A stretch of 61,462 bases of DNA. Origin: an uncultured Gammaproteobacteria bacterium. GTDB taxonomy: Bacteria; Patescibacteriota; Patescibacteriia; UBA9570. Where the stretch lies: contig CAYLOJ010000007.1 of the NCBI GenBank assembly GCA_964385285.1, forward strand, positions 1 through 61,462, written 5' to 3'. Position numbers and translations under genes: made by a program. Under the pieces are notes generated by a model that ran no database searches, was not told the DNA's origin, and saw only the letters and a program-made list of their open reading frames with translations. Positions 110-39,865 of this stretch are shown here, piece by piece (within the stretch, counting starts at the first letter, position 1; the number at the start of each line of letters is the position of its first letter).

Positions 110-1702
110 CTAGACCTCTTTGCCGCCAATACTTTGTAGTGCTAAATCCCAAACATTTCCAACATCATCTGGATTCACACCAGCGATGTTATCTGAAGGT
201 AACGTATTCAATACCGAGACATCAATATCATATTGCTCACCCACCACGCACTCAACAACCACGGCCTGCCCTAAGATTTGATTCAATATTCCCGTAATGG
301 CGTGCAGATAATCGATTTGGCAAACTTTAGCTTTATGAAAATCATAACGAAACCCTAACTGTATTCGATTCGGTGCAAACGCATTGGCGACATGGGCAAC
401 GGATAATGCCATGGCCAAAGCATGATTTACCTCTTTCGTTTTAGCGATGACCGTTGTCCAATGTTGCTTCACGATTGCCAATAATTCTGGGTCTGGCGTG
501 CCTTGCCCGGCCGGCGCGAGCTGAACGGTTGCTGCTGCACTGGGTGTAGTAGATTTAGGCGCGGCACTAGCGATCGGTTTGAGAGATGGTTTAGCGGGCG
601 CAGGAACGGTTGTTGCTGGAGTAGCCACCACCGGCGCAACCGGTGTACGCGTGCACCACTGCAACCCAGGCACCTCGATTAACAACTGAGTGATTGGACT
701 TTTTTGGTAGAGTTCTCCCGCAGAGATAAACAGATCTAACAGCTGCAAATAATCCTGACTCGTCAGTAAAGACAAGGTTGCTAATAATTGTTCATGCGTA
801 TTAGCGTGAACGTCTAAATCTTCCAGGTGTGTTAAGGAATGATCCACGCTATATAATAAACCCCGCCGGAAGAGCTCCAAGAGCAATTGCCAGAGCTCTT
901 TCATTTGTGCACCAGATTGCACAGCCTCGGAGACGGCTTTGGCATAGGCTTGCGGTTGTTGCTTAGCTAAGTGCGTGAATAGCTCAACCGCTACAGCCAT
1001 ATCTACCCGCGGTAATACGACGTCCGCCATGGCACTGGTAATCTCCTTCTCGCCTACTGCTAACACCTGACCTAATAGACTTTCGGCATCACGCGCAGCC
1101 CCTTGGGCTTTGCGGGCAATGCGTTCCAAAACAATGGGCTCGACTACCACGCCTTCCTGCACACACAGCCACTCCAAACGTTTGATGAGGTCAGGCAAAC
1201 GAATCGCATGAAAATCAAACCGCTGGCAACGTGATACTACCGTAGCCGGTAACTTGTGTACTTCCGTTGTGGCCAGAATGAATACAACATGGGCGGGTGG
1301 CTCTTCCAGGATCTTCAACAAAGCATTGAAGGCCGATACCGATAACATATGTACTTCATCAATGATGAAGACCTTATACTGTACCTGCGACGGCGCAACG
1401 TAGGCATTCTGAATAATATTTTCACGAACATTATCCACTCCGGTATGACTAGCAGCATCAATCTCAATGATATCAATCAATGTTTCCGTACTAGCCGTTT
1501 TACCGTTGATCGCTTTTGCAAAAATACGAGCCAGTGTCGTTTTACCGACACCACGCGGACCAGCAAATAAATAAGCGTGTGCAATGCGACCAGAGCTAAT
1601 TTGGTTCTGCAGGGTTAACTTAATATGCTCCTGATTAATCACCCCAGCAAAGTCTTGTGGACGATATTTTCGGTAGAGTGCAGTCGCTGAAGATGTGGAC
1701 AT
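110..1702 (-). CDS. dnaX: DNA polymerase III subunit gamma/tau
   Basis: ORF track 110..1825. Clamp-loader motifs present (YRPQDF, GPRGVGKTT Walker A, DEVHML, SRCQ). Start moved to the in-frame ATG at 1702 (MSTSSATALYRKYRP) because the 41 upstream codons run through a terminator and GC-rich hairpins. Confidence 0.9.
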   Translation of the reverse strand: MSTSSATALYRKYRPQDFAGVINQEHIKLTLQNQISSGRIAHAYLFAGPRGVGKTTLARIFAKAINGKTASTETLIDIIEIDAASHTGVDNVRENIIQNAYVAPSQVQYKVFIIDEVHMLSVSAFNALLKILEEPPAHVVFILATTEVHKLPATVVSRCQRFDFHAIRLPDLIKRLEWLCVQEGVVVEPIVLERIARKAQGAARDAESLLGQVLAVGEKEITSAMADVVLPRVDMAVAVELFTHLAKQQPQAYAKAVSEAVQSGAQMKELWQLLLELFRRGLLYSVDHSLTHLEDLDVHANTHEQLLATLSLLTSQDYLQLLDLFISAGELYQKSPITQLLIEVPGLQWCTRTPVAPVVATPATTVPAPAKPSLKPIASAAPKSTTPSAAATVQLAPAGQGTPDPELLAIVKQHWTTVIAKTKEVNHALAMALSVAHVANAFAPNRIQLGFRYDFHKAKVCQIDYLHAITGILNQILGQAVVVECVVGEQYDIDVSVLNTLPSDNIAGVNPDDVGNVWDLALQSIGGKEV

Positions 1703-1720
1703 AGGAGGCTTAGTATACGG

Positions 1721-1744
1721 AAAAAAAATCGGCTTGGCAAGCCG
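1721..1744 (-). terminator. Rho-independent terminator ending the cassette-A transcript
   Basis: Minus strand CGGCUU-GCC-AAGCCG hairpin followed by U8, about 18 nt upstream of the dnaX ATG. Confidence 0.6.
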
Positions 1745-27602: not shown

Positions 27603-27642
27603 TTTCCATTTCTGAACAGTGTTCAGGATGCGTAACTTTGTC

Positions 27643-27671
27643 TTGACAATGGAGCTTTCTTTCAATAGTCT
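27643..27671 (+). promoter_or_regulatory. Sigma70-type promoter of Y1 RNA
   Basis: TTGACA, 17 nt, TAGTCT. Confidence 0.5.
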
Positions 27672-27676
27672 GGAGA

Positions 27677-27868
27677 TGTTACTTTTTCATTCCCGTGTGT
27701 TTAAAAAGGTACGCACCTTCAAGCAACGACTCGAGATCAGCCCTCTAGCGGGTTTGGCCACATTCCCCATGGAAATGCGGCACTGCACGTGTAGTCGTGC
27801 CTGACAGCTGTCAGATTATTTTACGATTTTATTTAGTTTTAATGCGACAGGTCACCAGCCTGTTTTTT
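27677..27868 (+). ncRNA. Y-family structured leader/sRNA, copy Y1 (terminated ~75 nt before the FG-GAP gene)
   Basis: Homologous to Y2 and Y3 (GCACCUUCAAG, GGGUUUGG, UUCCCCAUGG blocks). Ends in ACAGG-UCACCAG-CCUGU plus U6. Confidence 0.5.
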
Positions 27869-27944
27869 GTTTGTAGTATCACAAGTCCTAACGATGCGAC
27901 TTATGCGTTGGACCATAATCTGATTAACGATTAAACTGAATTAT

Positions 27945-30098
27945 ATGTATAAAAAAATCCTCTTAACAGTTAGCGTTGCCCTACTAACGGGCTTAGCAAT
28001 TCCTCACCAGGGTAAGGCAACCAGTGCCTATGACCTACCAGAAATTTCAGGTGCCATCAACTCTGATGCTGCCGGTGATACTGTCGCCAGTGGAGATATC
28101 AATGGAGATGGCTATGATGATTTGCTCATTGGAGCCAGTGGTTACCATGAATTTGGGGGTGCCGTTTATCTGTTTTATGGCAGTGAGACTTTGATCACCG
28201 ATACTAGTGTGACAACAGCGGACGCGACCTTCGATGCCACTGATGCCCAATATGCTGGTTCAAATTTAACGACTGGGGATTTTAATGATGATGGTTATGA
28301 TGATATTGTCATTAACGCTAGAAATTATGCTGTCGACGGAAGTACGGTAGGGGCTGTATATATCATCTATGGTCAAGCCGATGCACTCACCTCTTTTCAG
28401 CTGAGCACAAAAAATACCACCCGTATTCGCGGTGATCAAGCCAATGACGCCTTAGATGCTGTTGGAGCAGCTGATTTAAACGGTGACGGTGTGGATGATT
28501 TAATCATTGGCTGCCCCCAGTATGGCAGCACGAATTACGGTGCCATTTATGTAATCTATGGCACAACTGGAGCTGAATTAGATGATGCTACATTATCCAG
28601 CAGCAACATTATTTTAGTAGGACAAAATACATCCGATTACTTTGGTGCTCAGGTCAGTAATGCTGGCGATGTCAATGGAGATGGTTTTGAAGATGTGGTC
28701 ATTGCCGCTCCACGTGATGAAGAAGGATTAAGTCGGATTTGGTTGTTGTATGGGCAATCGGCTGAGTTCTCTGCTGGTACCACCAATATCAGTACGATTG
28801 GCGTGCGCTTTAACAATGAGCACGACGATGATCAGTTGGGAACCGTTGCTTATGGTGGTGATATAAATAATGATGGTTACGATGATCTGTTGGCTGCGGC
28901 TACACAGTACTCCGACACGCTCGCTACCAATGGTGCTGTCTACACTTTACTCGGAAAATCCAGCCACTATACCAACCAATCCATTGCTACTGGTCAGCAG
29001 TATCTTGGTATCGCAGCTCACGATCAAGTGGGCACCGCCCTCACTAGCGGCCAGACTAACGATGATCGCTATAGCGACATAGTGATGTCAGCACAAGTTA
29101 GCAACACAGCTCAACCCGGAATCATCTACCTGATCTATGGAGAGGCTAACCCAATTTCGCAAGCTCTGAGTTTACAGCTGAGTATTGAAGGTAGGTCAGA
29201 TTACGATGAGTTTGGGAATAGTTTGGCGAGTGGTGATTTAAACCATGATGGCTATGACGAAATCATCATCGGCGCTCCAGGTCGCAATTCCTTTTCTGGT
29301 AGTGTCTATATCCTCTACAGCACGGTCGATACGGATGGTGATGGCATTGCCGGAACTGATGGTGTCATCTTCGATGGCGTAGATACCAATGATAATGACT
29401 TTGACAATGACGGCATTACCGATGACTTAGATACCGGAGTTGATACTACCTACGAAATTGCTGATGATGGTTATGACAATGATGGCGATGGCGTTGTGGA
29501 TGAAACTACCAATACTGTAGAGGAAAATGGTACCCACACCGGTTATGACAGCCTGGATCCAAACGATTCGGATACAGCCGCTGCTAATCTCTCGACGGTA
29601 CATGGTCGTAAGAACGGTAAAATTAAAGTTACCTATTCTGACGATTCCTCATATGTCTATACGATCTTCAACCACACTATTTCTCGAAAAACTAAGGTGA
29701 AACAATATAGCGACTTAGGTTACTACGTTGTTTACCAAGCCAATGGTAAAAAAGTGGCTCTAGTTAATGCCTACACGGGCGAGGTCTACAATCGTAAGAC
29801 AGTCAATCGCAAAGCTCGCCGCTATGTGGGATTGCTAGTCACTGATGTTCGTGGCGATGGTCATACTGAAGCGGTGGTTACGAATCGCAAAGGGACGGCG
29901 GTGCAGGTGGCGATCTTCAAAGTGAATACCAGTCGCCAAACCTTAAAAAAACGCTCCAGTCTCAAGCTGACTGATGCCAACATTGCCGTAACTAAGACAA
30001 AGAAAAAAGGCAAAAAAGTATTACTGCGTAATCGAAGCAGTCGGATCCTTTATCGATTAAATACCAACTCACATTACGTATTAAGCTCGGCGGAATAA
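27945..30098 (+). CDS. Secreted FG-GAP repeat protein (717 aa)
   Basis: Signal peptide. More than 7 repeats of the GD(I/V)NGDGYDD type. Host-like GC. Confidence 0.8.
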   Translation: MYKKILLTVSVALLTGLAIPHQGKATSAYDLPEISGAINSDAAGDTVASGDINGDGYDDLLIGASGYHEFGGAVYLFYGSETLITDTSVTTADATFDATDAQYAGSNLTTGDFNDDGYDDIVINARNYAVDGSTVGAVYIIYGQADALTSFQLSTKNTTRIRGDQANDALDAVGAADLNGDGVDDLIIGCPQYGSTNYGAIYVIYGTTGAELDDATLSSSNIILVGQNTSDYFGAQVSNAGDVNGDGFEDVVIAAPRDEEGLSRIWLLYGQSAEFSAGTTNISTIGVRFNNEHDDDQLGTVAYGGDINNDGYDDLLAAATQYSDTLATNGAVYTLLGKSSHYTNQSIATGQQYLGIAAHDQVGTALTSGQTNDDRYSDIVMSAQVSNTAQPGIIYLIYGEANPISQALSLQLSIEGRSDYDEFGNSLASGDLNHDGYDEIIIGAPGRNSFSGSVYILYSTVDTDGDGIAGTDGVIFDGVDTNDNDFDNDGITDDLDTGVDTTYEIADDGYDNDGDGVVDETTNTVEENGTHTGYDSLDPNDSDTAAANLSTVHGRKNGKIKVTYSDDSSYVYTIFNHTISRKTKVKQYSDLGYYVVYQANGKKVALVNAYTGEVYNRKTVNRKARRYVGLLVTDVRGDGHTEAVVTNRKGTAVQVAIFKVNTSRQTLKKRSSLKLTDANIAVTKTKKKGKKVLLRNRSSRILYRLNTNSHYVLSSAE

Positions 30099-32354: not shown

Positions 32355-32993
32355 CTACTGAGCGCTCATCATCCGGATGTACGCCACCTGCGCACCTTCG
32401 GCCGTCGGGTCAAAGGAGTAGGTGGCGGCGGTCGGAGCAACACTGCGCGTGGCAGAGATGCTCTTGGTTCGCATCGTGGACGAAGAAGCCGAGACGAGCT
32501 GGACGTGGTTGCGTCCCAACTGCTGCGACTCCCGCGCGACGATGTAGTTGAGCGCGAGGGTGTCGAGCGGAGTCCGGGAGTAGACCAGGTAGAGGTCCTC
32601 CTGGCCAAAGGGCGGGTTGATCTGCAGCGGGGAAGCTTCGGTACCGAACGGCACGGTACCTCCAGCGATAACGTAGTTGGACTCTCCGTCGTATGGAAAG
32701 ACCAGTGCCACGTTTGAAGCAGAGTCAACGTTGACGAGGTACACGTACCCCGTCTGCTGGATGGTCGCCACCATCCAGAGCTTCTCACCGTTGTGGAAGA
32801 TCCGCTCCGGATCCACAGCGCCGGACATCGTCTGGTAAGTGACAGTGGCAAGGTTGGTGGGTGCCTGGATCACACCGAGGCACTTCGCGCCGGGCGGACA
32901 CGCGTAAGCGGGCGTGACTGTGACAAGGGCGAGGAAGAAGACGACAAGGAGCAACCACTGGGGCAGTGTCTTGAAGTCATTGAAGGTAGACAT
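32355..32993 (-). CDS. GC-rich secreted protein, DUF4384-like
   Basis: Signal peptide ...LLLVVFFLALVTVTPAYA. GYVYLVNVDSASNVALVFPYDG resembles the DUF4384 core. Start set at the ATG at 32993; the track TTG is at 33011. Confidence 0.6.
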   Translation of the reverse strand: MSTFNDFKTLPQWLLLVVFFLALVTVTPAYACPPGAKCLGVIQAPTNLATVTYQTMSGAVDPERIFHNGEKLWMVATIQQTGYVYLVNVDSASNVALVFPYDGESNYVIAGGTVPFGTEASPLQINPPFGQEDLYLVYSRTPLDTLALNYIVARESQQLGRNHVQLVSASSSTMRTKSISATRSVAPTAATYSFDPTAEGAQVAYIRMMSAQ

Positions 32994-33040
32994 GGAATCT
33001 CGATTTGCCAACGCGCGTTGATGGCATCTAGGGTAGGGGT

Positions 33041-33255: not shown

Positions 33256-33320
33256 GTAGACTACTGTCTTCAGAATTTGAACCCTATTGTGCAGGCGTTG
33301 CGGCAGTGGCAACAAGTTTT
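33256..33320 (-). repeat. R repeat copy R1 (resembles a tRNA 3' half)
   Basis: Minus strand AAAACUUGUUGCCACUGCCGCAACGCCUGCACAAUAGGGUUCAAAUUCUGAAGACAGUAGUCUAC, followed by the palindrome AAACTAGTTT and the promoter. Confidence 0.7.
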
Positions 33321-33365
33321 AACTTCTTTAAGCTTACCCTTTAGTACTTTTCGTTATATGAATAT

Positions 33366-33863
33366 TCAGTATGTTAGGGCTTCAACAAGGGCCTTGCAAA
33401 AACGCTCTTGCCGCAACACAACACCCTTAGTATTGTGCCATGAACCGTCTCCAGGAATATATAACACGTGTTGACCATGCGCATCCCGATAGATCAGCTT
33501 TACTGCAACAGCGCTGCCATACGCAGTGATGATATGTTGAACGCTAGCAGAGACCACATCTGATTTATTGATACTAATGTTATCCATCGGCTGAAGAGCT
33601 GTGAACGTATAAACGCCCTTCATACAGGTAATACGTATATACCAGGGTGCAATAATTTTACGTCTAGTCGCGTACACAAAAAAAATGCCTAGCACAAACA
33701 TAACACCAACCCCTAACACACTGAGGGGCTCATCGCTACTAACAGGAATTTCTCCCTGAGCCCACAGCCAAATAAAACTACCAAATAATAGACTCATGAT
33801 AACAGGAAAAAATAAAATAATGCCTAGCCGGTCACGAGTTGAATGTCTCCTTTCAAATTGCAT
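33366..33863 (-). CDS. Hypothetical membrane protein (2 N-terminal TM helices)
   Basis: ORF track. Host-like GC. The ATG lies 9 nt after R2 with no promoter in between. Confidence 0.6.
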   Translation of the reverse strand: MQFERRHSTRDRLGIILFFPVIMSLLFGSFIWLWAQGEIPVSSDEPLSVLGVGVMFVLGIFFVYATRRKIIAPWYIRITCMKGVYTFTALQPMDNISINKSDVVSASVQHIITAYGSAVAVKLIYRDAHGQHVLYIPGDGSWHNTKGVVLRQERFCKALVEALTY

Positions 33864-33871
33864 ATAGTAAT

Positions 33872-33936
33872 GTAGATTCCTGTCTTCAGAATTTAAACCC
33901 TATTGTACAGGCATTGCGGCAGTGGCAGCAAGTTTT
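33872..33936 (-). repeat. R repeat copy R2
   Basis: About 85% identical to R1. Lies between hammerhead 1 and the 33863 ORF. Confidence 0.7.
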
Positions 33937-33950
33937 AGCCGGTTCAATTA

Positions 33951-34016
33951 TCCCCTTTCGTCCTTAATCTTGCGATCTAGACTCGTCAGTTTAGGCATTA
34001 CCTAAAGAGGGTGATG
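33951..34016 (-). ncRNA. Type III hammerhead ribozyme, copy 1
   Basis: Minus strand CCCUC^UUUAGG-UAAUG-CCUAAA-CUGACGA-GUCUAGAUC-GCAA-GAUUAAGGAC-GAAA-GGGG. All core nucleotides are present (CUGANGA, G10.1-C11.1, GAAA, A15.1-U16.1, C17). Stems I and II are loop-closed and stem III is open. Predicted cleavage between 34007 and 34006. Confidence 0.8.
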
Positions 34017-34101
34017 AGTGGGGCCTTGGGTTGCAGGAGACGTTGGAACGTTCGCCGCAACACACGTAGGTCCCACCCGCCCTCATACACCATCTGTCCT
34101 C
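34017..34101 (-). other. Conserved structured domain between the cassette-I stop and hammerhead 1
   Basis: Homologous to 36536-36610. Helix GUGGGACC/GGCCCCAC and inner ACGU-UCCA-ACGU hairpin. Confidence 0.5.
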
Positions 34102-34482
34102 TTACTGGCAGCTCACCTCCCAGCCACCGAACGGCTCAGCGGCTCCGATGATGAATGACGGTTCGGCCTCTGGTGCCTGCGGGCATTGCACCCGCCACTC
34201 GTCCGCGAGCGCCTTGGCCCGCTTGATACTGAGCGGCGGGTCCTGGAACGCCTCTTCACTCATCTGGGTGCCGAGTGAAGTGACATGACAGCGCTTGTCA
34301 CTGTGCTGCTTCCAGAACGCGCAGGCAGACCCCAGGTCGTACTTGACGGCCTTTCCATCAGGGCCGAGAGTCGACGAATTCTTCTGATAGAGTACGAATC
34401 CGCGGACTGCGTTATCGGCAGGCATAGCAGCCATGATGCTGAGAACGATGAGAAGAGTGAAGGCAGTCTTGAAAGTTCGCAT
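34102..34482 (-). CDS. GC-rich secreted 126-aa Cys-containing protein (cassette I)
   Basis: ORF track. N-terminal signal-like helix MRTFKTAFTLLIVLSIMAAMPA. Confidence 0.6.
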   Translation of the reverse strand: MRTFKTAFTLLIVLSIMAAMPADNAVRGFVLYQKNSSTLGPDGKAVKYDLGSACAFWKQHSDKRCHVTSLGTQMSEEAFQDPPLSIKRAKALADEWRVQCPQAPEAEPSFIIGAAEPFGGWEVSCQ

Positions 34483-34564: not shown

Positions 34565-34591
34565 CGAGTAATGTATGAGGGTTGTAAAGAA

Positions 34592-34774
34592 CAAAAAACA
34601 GGCGGTTAGCCTGCGTTGTGGAATAGAGAATGAATGGTTGTTTGGCTCGTACGATTACCTCGTACAGTGTCACATTACCATAGGGAACGTGACCAAACCC
34701 ACTTCATAACTTTTCCATTCAGTTATGCTAGTAGTTACTTGAAGGTGCATGTTTTGAGGCATGTCCTCAAAAAC
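34592..34774 (-). ncRNA. Y-family structured leader/sRNA, copy Y2
   Basis: Promoter TTGACA (34804-34809), 17 nt, TATAGT (34781-34786). Four hairpins. Terminator CAGGC-UAACC-GCCUG plus U6 at about 34593-34613. Confidence 0.55.
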
Positions 34775-34817
34775 AGTGGCACTATACTCATGCATATGAG
34801 TTATGTCAAGAATTGCT

Positions 34818-34883
34818 GTAAACCACTGTATTCAGAATTTGAACCCCATTGTACAGGCGTTGCGGCAGTGGCAACAGGTTTTA
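34818..34883 (-). repeat. R repeat copy R3
   Basis: Lies directly upstream of the Y2 promoter. A 12-nt R-end fragment (AGAGUCUACAUA) also overlaps the stop codon at about 34929-34940. Confidence 0.7.
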
Positions 34884-34939
34884 CGGCCTGTATTGGCTTG
34901 ATTTAATAGCCACAGCATTTTTGGAGAATTATGTAGACT

Positions 34940-36250
34940 CTATGACTGCATTGGATACTTAGCCATGAACGCTTCTAACTCGGCAGATAATTTAGCTTGT
35001 TCGGCCTGTAAACGTGTGTGTTCAGCCTGAGCTTGATCTAGCTCGTCGCCATATTGGTTTAAGTGGGGATCAATTGCTTTTTGAAAATCTGCATGTCTAG
35101 CCGCTTGATCGTGTGCCTGGTACTGGCCACGTGGCAAGTTATGTTGCCAAATGTTTTTCTCTACCCGCGATACTTGAAACCAACCAATGGCAGCACCTGC
35201 CGCTGCCCCTAACGCAGCCATTGGAATGTTTGGTTCACCAGTCTGCCCCACGTTGTACATGACACCCGCCATGCCCATAATGCCAGCAGTACCTAAAGTG
35301 ATATGCGCTACCTTTAACATTTCCCAAATTTGATGAGCAGTTACCCGTAATTGAATAGAGGCATCTCTTGCATCATAGGCATGTTGGCGAGCTGCTAAAT
35401 ACTGCTCAGCATCTTCTGCATCTACCGCTAATTCAAAATATTGTGCCAGCAATTCATTCAAGCGTTGGCCAGCCGTACGTATCTGTTCAATTAAGTTGGT
35501 CACTGCTGGTTCGGGTTCGTTGACTGCAGGTTGGCGCGGATCTTTGAATTTCACGTTACCATCACTCCCCAACCGATCAATTTCTAACTCTATCTCATGA
35601 ATTTCTTCTCGCAAAGATCGTAACTCTTCAGTCAGAGTAGTAATTTGTAGATTGCGATTTTCTGGAGTACCAGCGCGTTGTTCCGCCCGGCGTTGTTTGG
35701 CAGCTCGATAGCGTTCTAATTCTGGGTACTGAGCAAACCAACGCTCAGAATAATCGTGAGATTCCTCCATACGCGACAAACCAAATTCCACCGCTGAACC
35801 AGCCATGGCCCCACCAGCTGTGGCCAACGCTGTCATGGCAGGATCCTTAGTGAGCATATACGCTCCAGCACCAACACCAGTGCCTATAATTGAACTAGAA
35901 GTAACGTAACGTGTTACTGCCCAAGCCAGTTTAGCTGCTTTAGCTTTTATCTCGGCAAAACGTTGAGAATTTTGATTAAGTTGTTCAAGTGCTTGAATAC
36001 TGCGTTCTGCTCCTTCCTGAGCTTGCAACAATTTATAGTAGTGACTTAAGGCACTATCAAATTTTCGACCTGATTCTGCTAAATAGTCCAAATAGGCCTT
36101 TAAGGTTTCTGGAGTGGCTTCACCTTGGAATTCTAAAAGATTTTTAGCATGCTCTTCAGGTTGATGGTTAGGCAACGCAACCTTTGGTTCCAAATGGACT
36201 ATCGGTTCCGGTGGACGACGAAAGGGTTGACGAGTACGTTCAATACTCAT
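34940..36250 (-). CDS. Hypothetical coiled-coil protein with two glycine-zipper membrane segments
   Basis: ORF track. GTGVGAGAY...GGAMAGSAV and GTAGIMGMAGV...LGAAAGAAIGW. Confidence 0.6.
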   Translation of the reverse strand: MSIERTRQPFRRPPEPIVHLEPKVALPNHQPEEHAKNLLEFQGEATPETLKAYLDYLAESGRKFDSALSHYYKLLQAQEGAERSIQALEQLNQNSQRFAEIKAKAAKLAWAVTRYVTSSSIIGTGVGAGAYMLTKDPAMTALATAGGAMAGSAVEFGLSRMEESHDYSERWFAQYPELERYRAAKQRRAEQRAGTPENRNLQITTLTEELRSLREEIHEIELEIDRLGSDGNVKFKDPRQPAVNEPEPAVTNLIEQIRTAGQRLNELLAQYFELAVDAEDAEQYLAARQHAYDARDASIQLRVTAHQIWEMLKVAHITLGTAGIMGMAGVMYNVGQTGEPNIPMAALGAAAGAAIGWFQVSRVEKNIWQHNLPRGQYQAHDQAARHADFQKAIDPHLNQYGDELDQAQAEHTRLQAEQAKLSAELEAFMAKYPMQS

Positions 36251-36251
36251 A

Positions 36252-36416
36252 TTAGGATTGTGTGGATCTTAGTTGAGCTTGGATATCATCAGAAAAAGAT
36301 TCGATGTCCTGGTTCAGTTGTTGAAAGGCTAATTTCACTTCTGCAGGAGAAGCTTTACCCTGAGCGATTTTCTCGCACAAGTCATCAAAGTTTAATGGAG
36401 TATTATCATTCGCCAT
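36252..36416 (-). CDS. 54-aa hypothetical protein, translationally coupled to the 36250 ORF
   Basis: Hand-translated MANDNTPLNFDDLCEKIAQGKASPAEVKLAFQQLNQDIESFSDDIQAQLRSTQS. Its TAA stop lies 1 nt before the next ATG. Confidence 0.45.
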   Translation of the reverse strand: MANDNTPLNFDDLCEKIAQGKASPAEVKLAFQQLNQDIESFSDDIQAQLRSTQS

Positions 36417-36470: not shown

Positions 36471-36535
36471 TCCCTTTCGTCCTTGATCTTGCGATCTAGA
36501 CTCGTCAGTTTAGGCATTACCTAAAGAGGGTGATT
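36471..36535 (-). ncRNA. Type III hammerhead ribozyme, copy 2
   Basis: Same core as copy 1. The single stem II difference (GAUUAAGGAC to GAUCAAGGAC) converts a G-U pair to G-C. Predicted cleavage between 36526 and 36525. Confidence 0.8.
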
Positions 36536-36610
36536 GAGTGAAACCTTGGGTTGAAGCTGACGTTGGAACGTCACCAGCAACACACTTAGGTTCCACTCGC
36601 CCCTCATACA
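36536..36610 (-). other. Conserved structured domain between the cassette-J stop and hammerhead 2
   Basis: GUGGAACC/GGUUUCAC replaces GUGGGACC/GGCCCCAC of copy 1 (compensatory). GCUG/CAGC replaces GCGG/CCUGC. Confidence 0.5.
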
Positions 36611-37108
36611 CTAGTACCGCATGCACACCTGCGCCGTCAGCTCTTCACAGTTCGCAACGTGTGAATCTGGAGTACTCGCGAGACACTGTTCGTACAGGTA
36701 TCGAGTAGCGACGGGGGTGCACAGAGTGGTTGGATCGAACTGTTCGTAGTCCGACCACGGAGCCATGATCGGCCACTCATCCCACTTCGTTGGCATTCGA
36801 CCCAACTGCAGCGCGCGCCAGTTGCAGTTCGACTCGAGTGCGAGAAGTTTGATACTGGCACCCTGGGTATTCATCAGAATGACCTGCATCTGCTCCTCGT
36901 CACACAAAGGCGGCGGGTGCAATGTAGCGTCCATTTCCGTGAGCATGTACCGGAAGAGATCGGACATCGCCCGCTCTCTATCAAGTGACAACTCGAGCTT
37001 GTGAATCTTCTTGGCCTGCTCGATGAGCGCGTCCTGCTTTCGATGAGCGCACCCGCTGCTCAGGAGGATGATGAGGAGGACGACGATGGTCTTCAGCTGT
37101 GTGTACAT
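36611..37108 (-). CDS. GC-rich lipoprotein, 165 aa (cassette J)
   Basis: Lipobox LLSSGC. Seven further Cys. SD GGGAGAG. Confidence 0.65.
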   Translation of the reverse strand: MYTQLKTIVVLLIILLSSGCAHRKQDALIEQAKKIHKLELSLDRERAMSDLFRYMLTEMDATLHPPPLCDEEQMQVILMNTQGASIKLLALESNCNWRALQLGRMPTKWDEWPIMAPWSDYEQFDPTTLCTPVATRYLYEQCLASTPDSHVANCEELTAQVCMRY

Positions 37109-37186: not shown

Positions 37187-37212
37187 CAGATAGTGTATGA
37201 AGGTTGTAAAGA

Positions 37213-37401
37213 ACAAAACAGCAGGTGTTTCACCTGCTTTCACATTACGATTGATTGTACTCATCTAGACCTCTTTACAGGCAACGCGATTAACTCGCGC
37301 GGTACTACGCCACCATAGGGGGTGTAGTCGAACCCACTTGAACCTGTGTTCAAGTTGTTTCTAGAAAGTGCATGTTTTTACAGATGTGTATTCTGTAAAA
37401 A
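37213..37401 (-). ncRNA. Y-family structured leader/sRNA, copy Y3
   Basis: Promoter TTGACA (37431-37436), 17 nt, TACCAT (37408-37413). Terminator GCAGGUG-AAA-CACCUGC plus U-run at about 37214-37237. Confidence 0.55.
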
Positions 37402-37460
37402 CGCGCCATGGTACACCAAAATACATGTTTTGTCAAGACCTAATAGACACTGCTTTGTAT

Positions 37461-37525
37461 GTAGACTCTGTCTTCAGAATTTGAACCCTATGGTACAGAC
37501 GTTGAGGAAATGGCGGCAGGTATTA
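37461..37525 (-). repeat. R repeat copy R4 (most diverged)
   Basis: ...ACGUCUGUACCAUAGGGUUCAAAUUCUGAAGACAGAGUCUAC, upstream of the Y3 promoter. Confidence 0.6.
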
Positions 37526-37573
37526 GTATTCACTAGCTCTATTCACCTCTATTGAGATGAACACAGTATGCGT

Positions 37574-37660: not shown

Positions 37661-38203
37661 CTACTTCCGCCGGCGGAATCCAAACAGCGGGAAGAGCAGC
37701 GTTGCTGCGAAAGTAATACCTTGATTACATCCTCCGCACTCGACAGAATCCTTGTCGTCTCCCGTATCGCTCTCCCCAGAATCGATCTCGACCGACTGGG
37801 TGTAGAGGTTCACGCTGGTGCCGTCGACGAAAACCGCGAGGGTCGAATCCCGGTTTCCCTCCAACCAGGCCTCGTAGAGGCTCTCGGGGATGTACGCCGT
37901 GAACTCGTCACCGGTCAGGTCATAGTCGAAGTCCTCCCGCCCGTTGGGGAAGAGATCCGACTCACTGGCCCACGTGGACAGCCATTCGTAGTTGCAGACC
38001 TCATCGCCGTCGTCGAGCAGGAAGTTGTACACGACCTGGATTGAGTCGTAGCCGCTTGGGCTCTCGACGCCCGGGGTGAACGAGTTGGCATCGACCACGA
38101 TGGCGGTCGCCGACTCGCAGAATGCGTCGTTTGAGCCGTCGGCTCCCATGGTGTAGTCAGCGTCATCGGCGAGTGCTGCCGACAGGAACAATGAAAACAA
38201 CAT
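37661..38203 (-). CDS. GC-rich secreted acidic protein with a MYXO-CTERM/GlyGly-CTERM-like sorting tail (cassette L)
   Basis: Start moved to the ATG at 38203 (MLFSLFLSAALA signal peptide, SD UAGGAGAG). C-terminus ECGGCNQG-ITFAATLLFPLFGF-RRRK. Confidence 0.6.
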   Translation of the reverse strand: MLFSLFLSAALADDADYTMGADGSNDAFCESATAIVVDANSFTPGVESPSGYDSIQVVYNFLLDDGDEVCNYEWLSTWASESDLFPNGREDFDYDLTGDEFTAYIPESLYEAWLEGNRDSTLAVFVDGTSVNLYTQSVEIDSGESDTGDDKDSVECGGCNQGITFAATLLFPLFGFRRRK

Positions 38204-38316
38204 CACTACTCTCCTACTACTTCTGCTGGAACATTCCAGCAGCCAAGCAACTTTTCGAGTTACGAGGACTAAATAGACTATCGCGTAATCTATTCCATCC
38301 CAGTAATTCGACAAAC

Positions 38317-38460
38317 AAAAAAGACCCTTACTGGGTCATTTCCTAAAAACCTCTTCATCAGAGGGAACAACGACCGGATGGTCTTTTGTTTTGAGTGTTG
38401 TTAACGGAGTGCAGCCTAGCTCCGTCTCGTTACGTAACGAGATTAAATTTTCAATGAGGC
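38317..38460 (-). ncRNA. W-family structured leader/sRNA, copy W2
   Basis: Hairpins UCUCGUUAC/GUAACGAGA, CGGAG/CUCCG, AACAAC...GACC-AUCC-GGUC...GUUGUU and CCUCU-GAUGA-AGAGG. Terminator GACCC-AGUAA-GGGUC plus U6. Confidence 0.5.
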
Positions 38461-38464
38461 CAAC

Positions 38465-38493
38465 AGGTTAAGGCAAAATGTGATTTTTGTCAA
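38465..38493 (-). promoter_or_regulatory. Sigma70-type promoter of W2
   Basis: TTGACA (38488-38493), 17 nt, TAACCT (38465-38470). Confidence 0.45.
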
Positions 38494-38513
38494 TAGGTAA
38501 CGTAAACTAGTTT

Positions 38514-38578
38514 GTAGACTACTGTATTCAGAATTTGAACCCTATTGTGCAGGCATTAAGGCAGTGGCAGCAAGTTTT
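38514..38578 (-). repeat. R repeat copy R5
   Basis: It occupies exactly the position that the tRNA-Glu 3' fragment occupies in the W1 unit. Confidence 0.7.
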
Positions 38579-38602
38579 ACAGTTCGTAAACTGAATATAA
38601 AA

Positions 38603-38732: not shown

Positions 38733-39266
38733 CTATGGGCAGGTATGTCCATCATCGACGTTACCGTCGCAGTCATCATCGATGCCGTCGCAGTTCTCGT
38801 CGGGGGCACCAGGGTGAATTGCTGCGTTGGTGTCATCGCAGTCACTGGAACCAAGCGCGTAGCCCTCGGGGGGCTCGGCCGCACAAAAGTAGTCCCCTGT
38901 CCCTGCTCCGTAACCATCTTCATCCAGGTCCGGATAATAGATGGTCTGGCCGGTCAGCGTTCCCGGCCCCTCGTCTTCGTCGATGGCCCCGTCACAATCG
39001 TTGTCGATGCCATCGCAGGCCTCGGAATCTTCGGGACTCCTTCCACCATAGACGTCATCACGATCATCATCGCAGTCATCGTCATTGGTGACGTATCCTG
39101 CCGGGACGGGGTCACCACCACAGGCCTCCCAGATTTCCCGGGGATCACCACGACCATCGCCATCGAGATCGGCATACCAGGTTTTTGTAGGGTCGCCGCA
39201 ACCCGTATCGTTTTTTACAACGTTGACTGTGCATGCAAGAAGACCGAGGAGTAGAACGAGCAACAT
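38733..39266 (-). CDS. GC-rich lipoprotein with MopE-type putative metal-binding Cys/Asp repeats (cassette K)
   Basis: Lipobox LGLLAC. Two repeats of the form DCDD...PGAPE.CDGIDNDCDG preceded by DLDGDG(Y/R)G. Confidence 0.75.
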   Translation of the reverse strand: MLLVLLLGLLACTVNVVKNDTGCGDPTKTWYADLDGDGRGDPREIWEACGGDPVPAGYVTNDDDCDDDRDDVYGGRSPEDSEACDGIDNDCDGAIDEDEGPGTLTGQTIYYPDLDEDGYGAGTGDYFCAAEPPEGYALGSSDCDDTNAAIHPGAPDENCDGIDDDCDGNVDDGHTCP

Positions 39267-39437
39267 GTACTTCTCACAAAGACGTCCTAAACCGTCCCCT
39301 ATTTTTCAAGCGTTGTGGACTAGCTGTTCAGGCAGCTATTTTTAGCACTACTGGTTGCTACTAAAACTAAAGTCCTGACTGTATCCCTAAACATACAGAG
39401 ATAAAGTTAGAACGTTACTTTAAGAAACTAGGCAATA

Positions 39438-39581
39438 AAAAAAGACCCTTACTGGGTCATTTCCTAAAAACCTCTTCATCAGAGGGAACAACGACCGGAT
39501 GGTCTTTTGTTTTGAGTGTTGTTAACGGAGTGCAGCCTAGCTCCGTCTCGTTACGTAACGAGATTAAATTTTCAATGAGGC
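39438..39581 (-). ncRNA. W-family structured leader/sRNA, copy W1
   Basis: Part of a ~203-bp direct repeat (39438-39640 versus 38317-38519) with only 3 mismatches, all in the promoter spacer. Confidence 0.5.
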
Positions 39582-39585
39582 CAAC

Positions 39586-39614
39586 AGGTTAATCCAAAAT
39601 GTGGTTTTTGTCAA
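39586..39614 (-). promoter_or_regulatory. Sigma70-type promoter of W1
   Basis: TTGACA (39609-39614), 17 nt, TAACCT. Confidence 0.45.
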
Positions 39615-39634
39615 TAGGTAACGTAAACTAGTTT

Positions 39635-39654
39635 GTAGCCCCACAGGGAATCGA
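39635..39654 (-). repeat. 20-nt duplicate of the tRNA-Glu 3' end (att-like direct repeat)
   Basis: gtagccccacagggaatcga is identical to 39793-39812. It cannot fold as a tRNA on its own. Confidence 0.8.
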
Positions 39655-39750
39655 CCACTCCGCCCAATTCAGAAATTGGGCTCCGGGCCGGGGCTTGTGC
39701 TCGTCTGTCACTGACAGCCGTGCTCGCCCGTTCGATTCCTCCACGAACCA
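39655..39750 (-). other. Orphan GC-rich fragment without an ORF, carrying a GGAGGAA + hairpin module
   Basis: Minus strand GUGGAGGAAUCGAACGGGCGAGCACGGCUGUCA-G-UGACAGACGAGCAC... It lies between the two copies of the tRNA 3' end. Confidence 0.4.
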
Positions 39751-39793: not shown

Positions 39794-39865
39794 TAGCCCC
39801 ACAGGGAATCGAACCCTGGTTTGAGCGCTGAGAACGCTCCGTCCTAACCGTTAGACGATGAGGCC
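39794..39865 (-). tRNA. tRNA-Glu(CUC)
   Basis: 72-nt cloverleaf folded by hand: GGCCUCA/UGGGGCU acceptor, GUCU/GGAC D stem, GAGCG-UUCUCAG-CGCUC anticodon arm, 4-nt variable loop, CAGGG-UUCGAUU-CCCUG T arm. CCA is not encoded. Confidence 0.85.

Follow-up and report, generated by a model that had tools for sequence, protein, structure and literature searches.

The window analysed here is a 61,462-nucleotide (nt) stretch of contig CAYLOJ010000007.1 from an uncultured bacterium (GenBank assembly GCA_964385285.1). Its minus strand carries two expression units in which an open reading frame (ORF) is followed by a hammerhead-like RNA motif, named HH1 and HH2. A third copy, HH3, lies at positions 691-749 of a Logan contig (L020) from another sample, belonging to a related uncultivated bacterium. 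As far as sequence can tell, HH1 and HH2 are probably genuine type III hammerhead ribozymes, each forming the last element of a conserved 3' untranslated region (UTR) module of ~150 nt. The motifs are laid out below; the strands, stems and core of HH1 come from direct parsing in standard hammerhead numbering.

33953-34011, minus strand: HH1, probable type III hammerhead (core, descriptor match, minimum-free-energy (MFE) fold of the isolated 63-nt RNA, and 96 bits to R1, a covariance model of the three copies)
34011-34008, minus strand: HH1 stem III 5' strand CCCU (16.4-16.1)
34007, minus strand: HH1 C17, with cleavage predicted between 34007 and 34006
34006-33990, minus strand: HH1 stem I, UUUAGG(U)-AAU-(G)CCUAAA
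33989-33983, minus strand: HH1 core C3-A9, CUGACGA
33982-33960, minus strand: HH1 stem II, GUCU-A-GAUC-GCAA-GAUU-AA-GGAC
33959-33957, minus strand: HH1 G12-A14, GAA
33956-33953, minus strand: HH1 stem III 3' strand AGGG (15.1-15.4)
36472-36530, minus strand: HH2, paralogous hammerhead with C17 at 36526 (repeat alignment, descriptor, model R1)

The minus strand read from 34016 to 33951 is identical to the letters from which an earlier sequence-only reading had proposed a complete type III hammerhead core. That proposal is borne out by the parse, by the descriptor and by a paralog and an ortholog with structure-preserving substitutions. The invariant core (C3 U4 G5 A6 N7 G8 A9 together with G12 A13 A14) is complete in HH1, HH2 and HH3, all of which also carry the G10.1-C11.1 and A15.1-U16.1 pairs. 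The cleavage triplet is CUC in each copy, with a nucleotide other than G at position 17, in keeping with the NUH rule. Loops close stems I and II while stem III is open, which is the type III permutation; three helices are present (descriptor stems of 7/4(+4)/4 base pairs (bp)), and the MFE structure of the isolated 63-nt RNA is the same hammerhead fold. Stem II had been described as a helix of about 9 bp with a GNRA loop. This description holds for the GCAA tetraloop of HH1 but not for the ACAA of the ortholog, and the helix itself is not continuous, being composed of 4 bp, a 1x2 internal loop and a further 4 bp.

HH1 and HH2 share 96% identity over 70 nt, or 98% across the ribozyme as against ~81% in the flanks, and their sole difference inside the ribozyme, a U-to-C change in stem II, converts a G.U pair to G-C. 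This likeness was given little weight because gene conversion, rather than selection, could explain it. HH3 follows an ortholog (84% identical) of the 165-amino-acid (aa) ORF upstream of HH2, on a contig that also carries the matching 5' UTR end and 3' module. Of its 59 positions, 8 are changed relative to HH2; the invariant core is untouched and all 19 bp are kept. N7 changes from C to U, giving CUGAUGA, and three changes fall in loops, two positions in loop 1 and one in loop 2 (GCAA to ACAA). In the helices, pair 1.3-2.3 of stem I passes from U-A to G-C, a compensatory change, the U.G pair topping stem I becomes U-A and the U.G pair 10.4-11.4 in stem II becomes C-G, both of the latter one-sided. 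Over the three copies, stem I thus shows one compensatory and one one-sided change, stem II two one-sided changes and stem III none, with the hammerhead helices 100% paired throughout; the G.U pairs appear solely in RNA of the minus-strand sequence. Among simulated random variants with eight substitutions, just 0.015% kept the core and the 19 pairs, or 0.12% with a 2:1 transition bias. This substitution pattern (p of ~1e-4 to 1e-3) is supportive, although three sequences make a shallow basis for a formal test of covariation.

The window was searched with our own type III descriptor, which demands the strings CUGANGA and GAAA, U16.1, any nucleotide but G at position 17, and three helices; a degenerate pattern suited to finding further homologs would be CACCCUCUUNAGGUANNNCCUNAACUGANGAGUCNAGAUCNCAAGAUNAAGGACGAAAGGG. 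The descriptor recovered the HH1 site and the second copy at 36530-36472, and none of 300 dinucleotide-preserving shuffles of the window matched at stems of at least 6/4/4 bp; at the loosest setting the mean was 0.003 matches per shuffle (300 shuffles). A third, loose match was seen at 1667-1725 on the plus strand, with stems of 4/4/3 bp, antisense within ORF 110-1825; it has U.G at 10.1-11.1 rather than G-C, and no second copy. It is probably a chance match, despite the shuffle expectation of just 0.003 at the loose setting.

Each hammerhead in the window is the final element of the conserved ~150-nt 3' module, which begins at the stop codon, or a few bases after it, of two unrelated ORFs. 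The order within the module is a 3' box (GUGUAUGAGGG), a long imperfect hairpin and then ...CACCCUC, which provides the 5' strand of stem III and C17.

34007-34090, minus strand: long imperfect hairpin of unit 1, starting at the 3' box GUGUAUGAGGG at 34090-34080 (folding, three-copy alignment)
36526-36611, minus strand: long hairpin of unit 2 with its 3' box at 36611-36601 (folding, z = -3.9, alignment)

The differences between copies of the long hairpin preserve pairing and include one compensatory change from G-C to A-U. The base helix of the hairpin, GAGGG/CCCUC, takes up the 5' strand of stem III together with C17 and so competes with the active fold, a feature absent from the sequence-only reading. 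This helix could, by the folding model, hold the uncleaved ribozyme off. Since GAGGG-CCCUC may inactivate the uncleaved ribozyme, how much is cleaved is probably governed by folding kinetics or by other partners of GAGGG.

Several results weigh against a catalytic role and have to be set beside the evidence above. When the motif is folded with its upstream module, the MFE structure pairs GAGGG with CCCUC, leaves stems I and II as separate hairpins and has no stem III; imposing stem III with an unpaired core raises the energy by 2.5 kcal/mol in HH1 and by 5.2 kcal/mol in HH2, values that are secondary-structure energies only. Stem III measures only 4 bp and is the same in all three copies, hence it shows no covariation. 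An extension of stem III past 4 bp, which HH1 would allow by bulging an A, was dropped, since HH2 and HH3 disrupt it. Fast hammerhead cleavage at physiological Mg2+ requires a tertiary contact between stems I and II, either loop-loop or a pseudoknot. As read from the three-copy alignment, the 1x2 internal loop of stem II, situated 4 bp away from the core, could lie opposite loop 1, and no conserved loop-loop contact was identified across HH1-HH3. The sole Watson-Crick candidate, a UAAU:AUUA pseudoknot between loop 1 and stem II, was dropped, being broken in HH2 and HH3; the GNRA loop of stem II is likewise not kept in HH3. The comparative set comprises just three sequences from two close relatives, of which HH1 and HH2 are near-identical, possibly through gene conversion. 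With the patterns used, no further family members appeared in a 185,579-species genome set or in metagenome and viral scans, the genome-collection pattern (stems I and III fixed) being one that would have missed HH3-like variants.

The Rfam results belong to the same side of the balance. At the gathering threshold, the whole window returned tRNA-Glu alone and no hammerhead, and a search at E<=10 over 401 nt likewise gave no hammerhead. A cmsearch with the Hammerhead_3 model (RF00008), which the sequence-only reading had put forward as a check, gave 12.1 bits (E=3.4) against a gathering score of 48.5, and this only with 81 nt in isolation; the alignment runs through stem I and the core into the base of stem II, with a 15-nt insertion in stem II and stem III dropped. 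For HH3, the best Rfam match was RF00163, the wrong permutation, at 20.4 bits against a gathering score of 34. We attribute the low RF00008 score to the length of stem II and to a stem III of just 4 bp, and three metagenomic type III hammerhead-like sequences described below likewise reach only ~28 bits or nothing in Rfam. The motif lies outside curated RF00008 membership, and its assignment to the class is based on the core, the helices and the comparative evidence.

The main competitor to a ribozyme is a structured, non-catalytic 3' UTR or intergenic element of three hairpins, with CCCUC locked in vivo and the hammerhead match incidental; such an element might act in protein binding, in stabilisation or as an RNase processing site. 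The three-hairpin MFE structure in context is just what it would predict, and the short stem III without covariation and the Rfam score far under threshold also speak for it. In addition, the pairing-preserving changes of the long hairpin imply constraints on the module beyond the ribozyme. On the other hand, 13 core positions needed for catalysis only are unpaired in that structure, yet they are invariant in the three copies while the loops and N7 vary, and by chance the full descriptor should match fewer than 0.003 times per window. We therefore hold this explanation to be quite unlikely.

The genes and signals around HH1 and HH2 are as follows.

34102-34482, minus strand: 126-aa ORF upstream of HH1, with a signal-peptide-like N-terminus by inspection and no family match
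33366-33863, minus strand: 165-aa membrane-like ORF downstream of HH1, with no predicted promoter of its own
36611-37108, minus strand: 165-aa ORF upstream of HH2, with a lipoprotein-like N-terminus (…LLSSGC) and 56% G+C
34940-36416, minus strand: pair of genes of 54 and 436 aa downstream of HH2, kept in relatives that have no hammerhead
34598-34809, minus strand: promoter-like TTGACA-17-TATAGT (34809-34781) and leader of unit 1, with an intrinsic terminator at 34614-34598
37220-37436, minus strand: promoter-like site (37436-37408) and leader of unit 2, with a terminator at 37238-37220
33880-33938, minus strand: 59-nt repeat 15 nt downstream of HH1, with the palindrome UUCAAAUUCUGAA, one of five copies in the window

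The sequence-only reading had placed the motif 95 nt after a GC-rich gene for a secreted protein. This is accurate: the stop codon of the 126-aa ORF lies 95 nt before the HH1 cleavage site, its G+C is 59% as against 47% for the window, and its N-terminus fits secretion. It had also reported no terminator before the next ORF (33863), and none is predicted on the minus strand between 34102 and 33863, nor is any promoter-like site. With neither signal between the two ORFs, a single transcript cut into two cistrons is reasonable for HH1. The separation of the cistrons that had been drawn from this keeps its footing in the layout, both genes lying on the same strand, while the cut itself is what we would expect of the ribozyme. 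For HH2, a weak promoter-like site (36459-36432) follows the motif, and then the 54-aa and 436-aa pair. HH3 in L020 is followed by 10 nt, a full 59-nt repeat and a Na/Ca-exchanger gene.

The most likely role of the ribozymes is the cutting of read-through transcripts; both lie on the coding strand with no predicted terminator ahead. Transcription from the unit promoter would proceed through the ORF into the ribozyme, which would cut after C17. The upstream mRNA would then end in ...CCCUC with a 2',3'-cyclic phosphate, and this end could snap back on GAGGG, closing the long hairpin flush into a structured, exonuclease-resistant 3' end. Departure of the 5' product from the 4-bp stem III would prevent religation. 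The downstream RNA would carry a 5'-OH at its start, then the hairpins of stems I and II and after them the next gene, which for HH1 is the 165-aa membrane protein. In this way the ribozyme would uncouple neighbouring cistrons and define their ends.

Upstream of their ORFs, both hammerhead units share a frame that consists of the 59-nt repeat, a promoter, a leader with its terminator and a structured 5' UTR reaching to the start codon. The two promoters are sigma-70-like (TTGACA-17-TATAGT/TACCAT), and the leader terminator of unit 2 carries compensatory changes relative to that of unit 1. The two ORFs within these frames were considered as diverged homologs, and this was rejected (BLASTP E>4); an exact-protein look-up of the 126-aa ORF returned an identical short contig only. 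The leader RNA, ~175 nt long, is present in three copies, at 34598-34809 (minus), 37220-37436 (minus) and 27640-27880 (plus), each after a GTCTTGACA-17-TAnnnT promoter. The third precedes an FG-GAP gene at 27945, in a unit with neither the 5' box nor the hammerhead module. In one leader hairpin the loop CCCYAUGG is conserved and the stem covaries, reading GUCAC/GUGAC in one copy and ACUAC/GUAGU in another; in a second hairpin the covarying stem reads GUACG/CGUAC, GCGCG/CGCGU and GCACG/CGUGC. No Rfam match was obtained for the leader RNA, which is a candidate attenuator or riboswitch-like element.

The remaining four window copies of the 59-nt repeat lie at 33264-33322, 34826-34884, 37468-37526 and 38522-38580, with others at L004:775-839 and at ~765-825 of L020. 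The copies are 83-92% identical, the best-conserved part being GGGUUCAAAUUCUGAAKACAG with the palindrome TTCA-N5-TGAA, and a strong promoter-like site stands 17-25 nt downstream of the repeat in three of the window copies. The repeat is kept in relatives even though the neighbouring protein is only 45% identical, and it looks like a common operator or activator site of a regulon. The predicted secreted-protein or lipoprotein ORFs of the region, all on the minus strand (32355-33011, 34102-34482, 36611-37108, 37661-38314 and 38733-39266), have 56-60% G+C, compared with 47% for the window and 39-46% for the ORFs interleaved with them; foreign origin or compositional selection could account for this. 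A small ORF of 53-55 aa abuts or overlaps the start of the 436-aa coiled-coil/membrane gene, in the window at 36252-36416 with 34940-36250 (minus), and the same two-gene unit occurs in all three relatives (L016:9840-11266, L018:1181-2691 and L019:209-1684).

The 5' UTR of each unit contains a short box complementary to the 3' box of the module.

34571-34581, minus strand: 5' box CCCUCAUACAU in the 5' UTR of unit 1, directly after the leader terminator (alignment, co-fold, 11-mer count)
37193-37203, minus strand: 5' box CCUUCAUACAC in the 5' UTR of unit 2, complementing the 3' box at 36611-36601 (alignment, co-fold)

The 5' box (consensus CCYUCAUACAYUA; the sequence relevant to pairing with the 3' box is CCCUCAUACAUUAC) and the 3' box, which contains GAGGG, are complementary over 12-13 bp. 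As an 11-mer, the box occurs only four times in the window, as the two 5' and the two 3' boxes. On our reading of the alignment, the differences between the boxes of unit 1 and unit 2 keep the pairing by means of wobbles, and in unit 2 the stop codon falls within the 3' box. When the 5' and 3' UTRs were folded together, the box duplex was predicted in all three units with a gain of ~15-19 kcal/mol, and in unit 1 the complete hammerhead fold is predicted to form once the duplex is in place.

These pairings raise the idea that the hammerhead is a conformationally gated switch of 3'-end processing, steered by pairing between the 5' UTR and the 3' UTR; we put it forward tentatively and regard it as improbable. 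By default, the post-stop box UGUAUGAGGG would close the long hairpin onto CCCUC, masking stem III and C17. Release would come when the 5' UTR box pairs with the 3' box, so that CCCUC is freed and the ribozyme folds. Cleavage would then serve as a readout of the 5' leader's state, or of ribosomes passing over the stop codon, and it would set the stability of the upstream mRNA and the expression of the downstream gene. A separate complementarity was noted between the U-rich tail of the leader terminator, UUUUGUUCUU (~34588-34597 and ~37210-37219, minus), and AAGGACGAAA of the hammerhead, with G.U pairs. The latter segment corresponds to the 3' strand of stem II with G12-A14 (33956-33966 and 36475-36485, minus), and the co-fold MFE structures of unit 2 and L020 include the pairing. 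Chance complementarity between U-rich and purine-rich sequence may explain it.

The window is chromosomal, with GAPDH, leuB-like, ilvB-like and aminotransferase genes, and housekeeping genes flank the hammerhead region. Searches of the ORFs at ~23-42 kb against PHROG, Pfam and NCBIfam gave no significant phage or integrase family, and none of the ~25 neighbouring ORFs scanned matched an integrase, transposase or phage family. A prophage context was accordingly dropped. The only informative family matches among the ORFs at 31-39 kb were DUF4384 and a MopE-type motif. For the 467-aa and 436-aa proteins, two to three homolog clusters were found among 5.8 billion, with a single named relative, a protein of a Patescibacteria-group metagenome-assembled genome at 55% identity; because there is only this one, the lineage assignment is tentative. 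The tRNA-Glu gene lies at 39794-39865 (minus), and a 28-nt copy of its 3' end is found ~158 nt downstream, at 39632-39659. A 216-nt segment by the tRNA fragment (39423-39638) is repeated 1.1 kb away at 38302-38517 with 96% identity; each copy carries two terminator-like hairpins, and no integrase was seen. The arrangement resembles a scar left by insertion or duplication at the tRNA.

These surroundings bear on a second alternative, namely that the conserved pieces form a DNA-level element, for instance a site of recombination or a mobile-cassette end (compare integron attC sites or miniature inverted-repeat transposable elements), whose single-stranded DNA hairpins resemble a hammerhead incidentally. 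Unrelated ORFs do lie within conserved frames, the downstream neighbours of the unit differ between the window and L020, the array adjoins tRNA-Glu with its duplicated 3' fragment, and inverted 11-nt boxes stand on both sides of the ORFs. Against this, we read no RYYYAAC/GTTRRRY core sites in the 3' module or the 59-nt repeat, and the scanned neighbours gave no match to the families named above. Moreover, the frame extends from the promoter up to the start codon and contains a terminator and a Shine-Dalgarno region, features that behave as expression signals rather than element ends, and the 5' box sits ~85 nt inside the conserved frame rather than at the boundary of the variable segment. An integron attC or gene cassette was dropped, with no core sites and no tyrosine recombinase among the scanned ORFs, and we consider a DNA-level element of any kind highly unlikely. 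The "repeat/cassette system" to which the sequence-only reading had tied the motif looks instead like a set of paralogous units of expression that have regulatory DNA and RNA in common, not like an array of recombination cassettes. Finally, although minimal hammerhead descriptors do yield false positives in large databases (PMC6155905) and a loose, non-canonical match does occur within a gene at 1667-1725 (plus), a chance match to a low-information motif is a negligible prospect here, with 0 of 300 shuffles matching at these stem lengths and the motif kept in a paralog and in an ortholog with a compensatory change.

Turning to relatives of the probable ribozymes, model R1 found no further copy in the window or in the fetched loci, and the loci of the 467-aa and 436-aa homologs (L003-L005 and L016-L019) contained no hammerhead. 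The genome-collection pattern matched one GC-rich site (L001), which has no hammerhead fold and was set aside as chance, and four scans of viral contigs gave no match. With the core and stem III fixed, a metagenome scan returned 10 matches, of which seven have no hammerhead fold. The other three (L009, L012 and L013) are type III hammerhead-like and each comes right after a stable hairpin, but homology is not demonstrable. L009:49-105 (plus), L012:181-240 (minus) and L013:826-882 (minus) share CACCCUC...GAAAGGG and a 4-bp stem III; in L009, CACCCUC has a potential upstream pairing partner, GAGGGGUG, similar to the window, and the L012 motif stands ~50 nt after a 152-aa ORF. A hairpin followed by a hammerhead with a short stem III may be a recurrent arrangement.

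The locus is a further example of a well-known kind of ribozyme. The sequence-only reading had called bacterial type III hammerheads uncommon, which does not agree with the literature: hundreds of bacterial hammerheads have been reported and all three permutations described (PMC3088659, PMC6155905, PMC6765202), with type II reported to match types I and III in its bacterial frequency (PMC3088659, PMC6155905). Copies are often close together, around single genes or short blocks of inconstant identity (PMC3088659, PMC6155905, PMC6765202), and clusters around small non-conserved ORFs are explicitly described (PMC3088659, PMC6155905). Some bacterial hammerheads cleave polycistronic transcripts of ~2 kb in vitro and one set cleaved upon expression in Escherichia coli (PMC3088659, PMC6155905, PMC6765202), while their function is an acknowledged open question (PMC6155905, PMC6765202). 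With the bacterial genomic hammerheads of Perreault et al. 2011 (PMC3088659) and of de la Pena & Garcia-Robles 2010 (via PMC6155905), HH1 and HH2 have in common the canonical core and the type III topology. As in those genomic examples, the motifs are intergenic and on the coding strand, the copies lie a few kb apart and bracket short genes of inconstant identity, and a cutting of polycistronic RNA into gene-length pieces is proposed. Those clusters, however, are mostly found in a prophage or integrase context, whereas the ORFs scanned here include no phage or integrase family. A further difference is that the ribozyme here is the fixed end of a 3' UTR module paired with a conserved 5' leader, and its sequence falls well under Rfam thresholds.

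Members of RF00008, which are plant viroid, satellite and eukaryotic hammerheads such as those of satellite tobacco ringspot virus (sTRSV) and peach latent mosaic viroid (PLMVd), have the same permutation, the same core and A15.1-U16.1, and a stem II that starts with G10.1-C11.1 followed by U-A and C-G. In contrast to the ~4 bp and loop of RF00008, stem II is extended here to 4 bp, an internal loop, 4 bp and a tetraloop; also unlike those members, the motif has a 4-bp stem III, scores 12 bits as against 48.5 and is not part of a circular RNA replicon. In viroid hammerheads, such as those of avocado sunblotch viroid (ASBVd) and PLMVd, a stable rod or branched fold masks the ribozyme. The window resembles them in that part of the ribozyme, in this case the 5' strand of stem III and C17, is tied up in a competing helix of greater predicted stability. 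It differs in that the competitor is a hairpin of an mRNA 3' UTR, possibly relieved by a 5' UTR box, with no replication cycle.

RiboJ, a ribozyme insulator, comes from the hammerhead of sTRSV. In bacteria, twister ribozymes located in 3' UTRs have been used or proposed as processing elements (PMC6765202). The arrangement proposed here is akin to both, with a self-cleaving RNA between transcription units, a downstream RNA that would start with a 5'-OH and then a hairpin, and an upstream RNA whose stability would be altered. Unlike RiboJ, HH1 and HH2 are natural rather than engineered, and their functional consequence is one we infer.

Overall, these results describe a hammerhead family outside the prophage context, probably in a sparsely sampled lineage, and the locus shows that Rfam thresholds overlook such hammerhead variants. 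If the gating idea were true, it would provide a natural ribozyme in a bacterial mRNA under joint control of the 5' and 3' UTRs, and a concrete mechanism tying a ribozyme to mRNA 3'-end formation and to the uncoupling of cistrons; otherwise, this is an ordinary genomic hammerhead. In either case the architecture is unusually explicit: the ribozyme stands exactly at the foot of a 3' hairpin, a helix competes with its active fold, and the 5' UTR contains a complementary box. This makes its function experimentally approachable.

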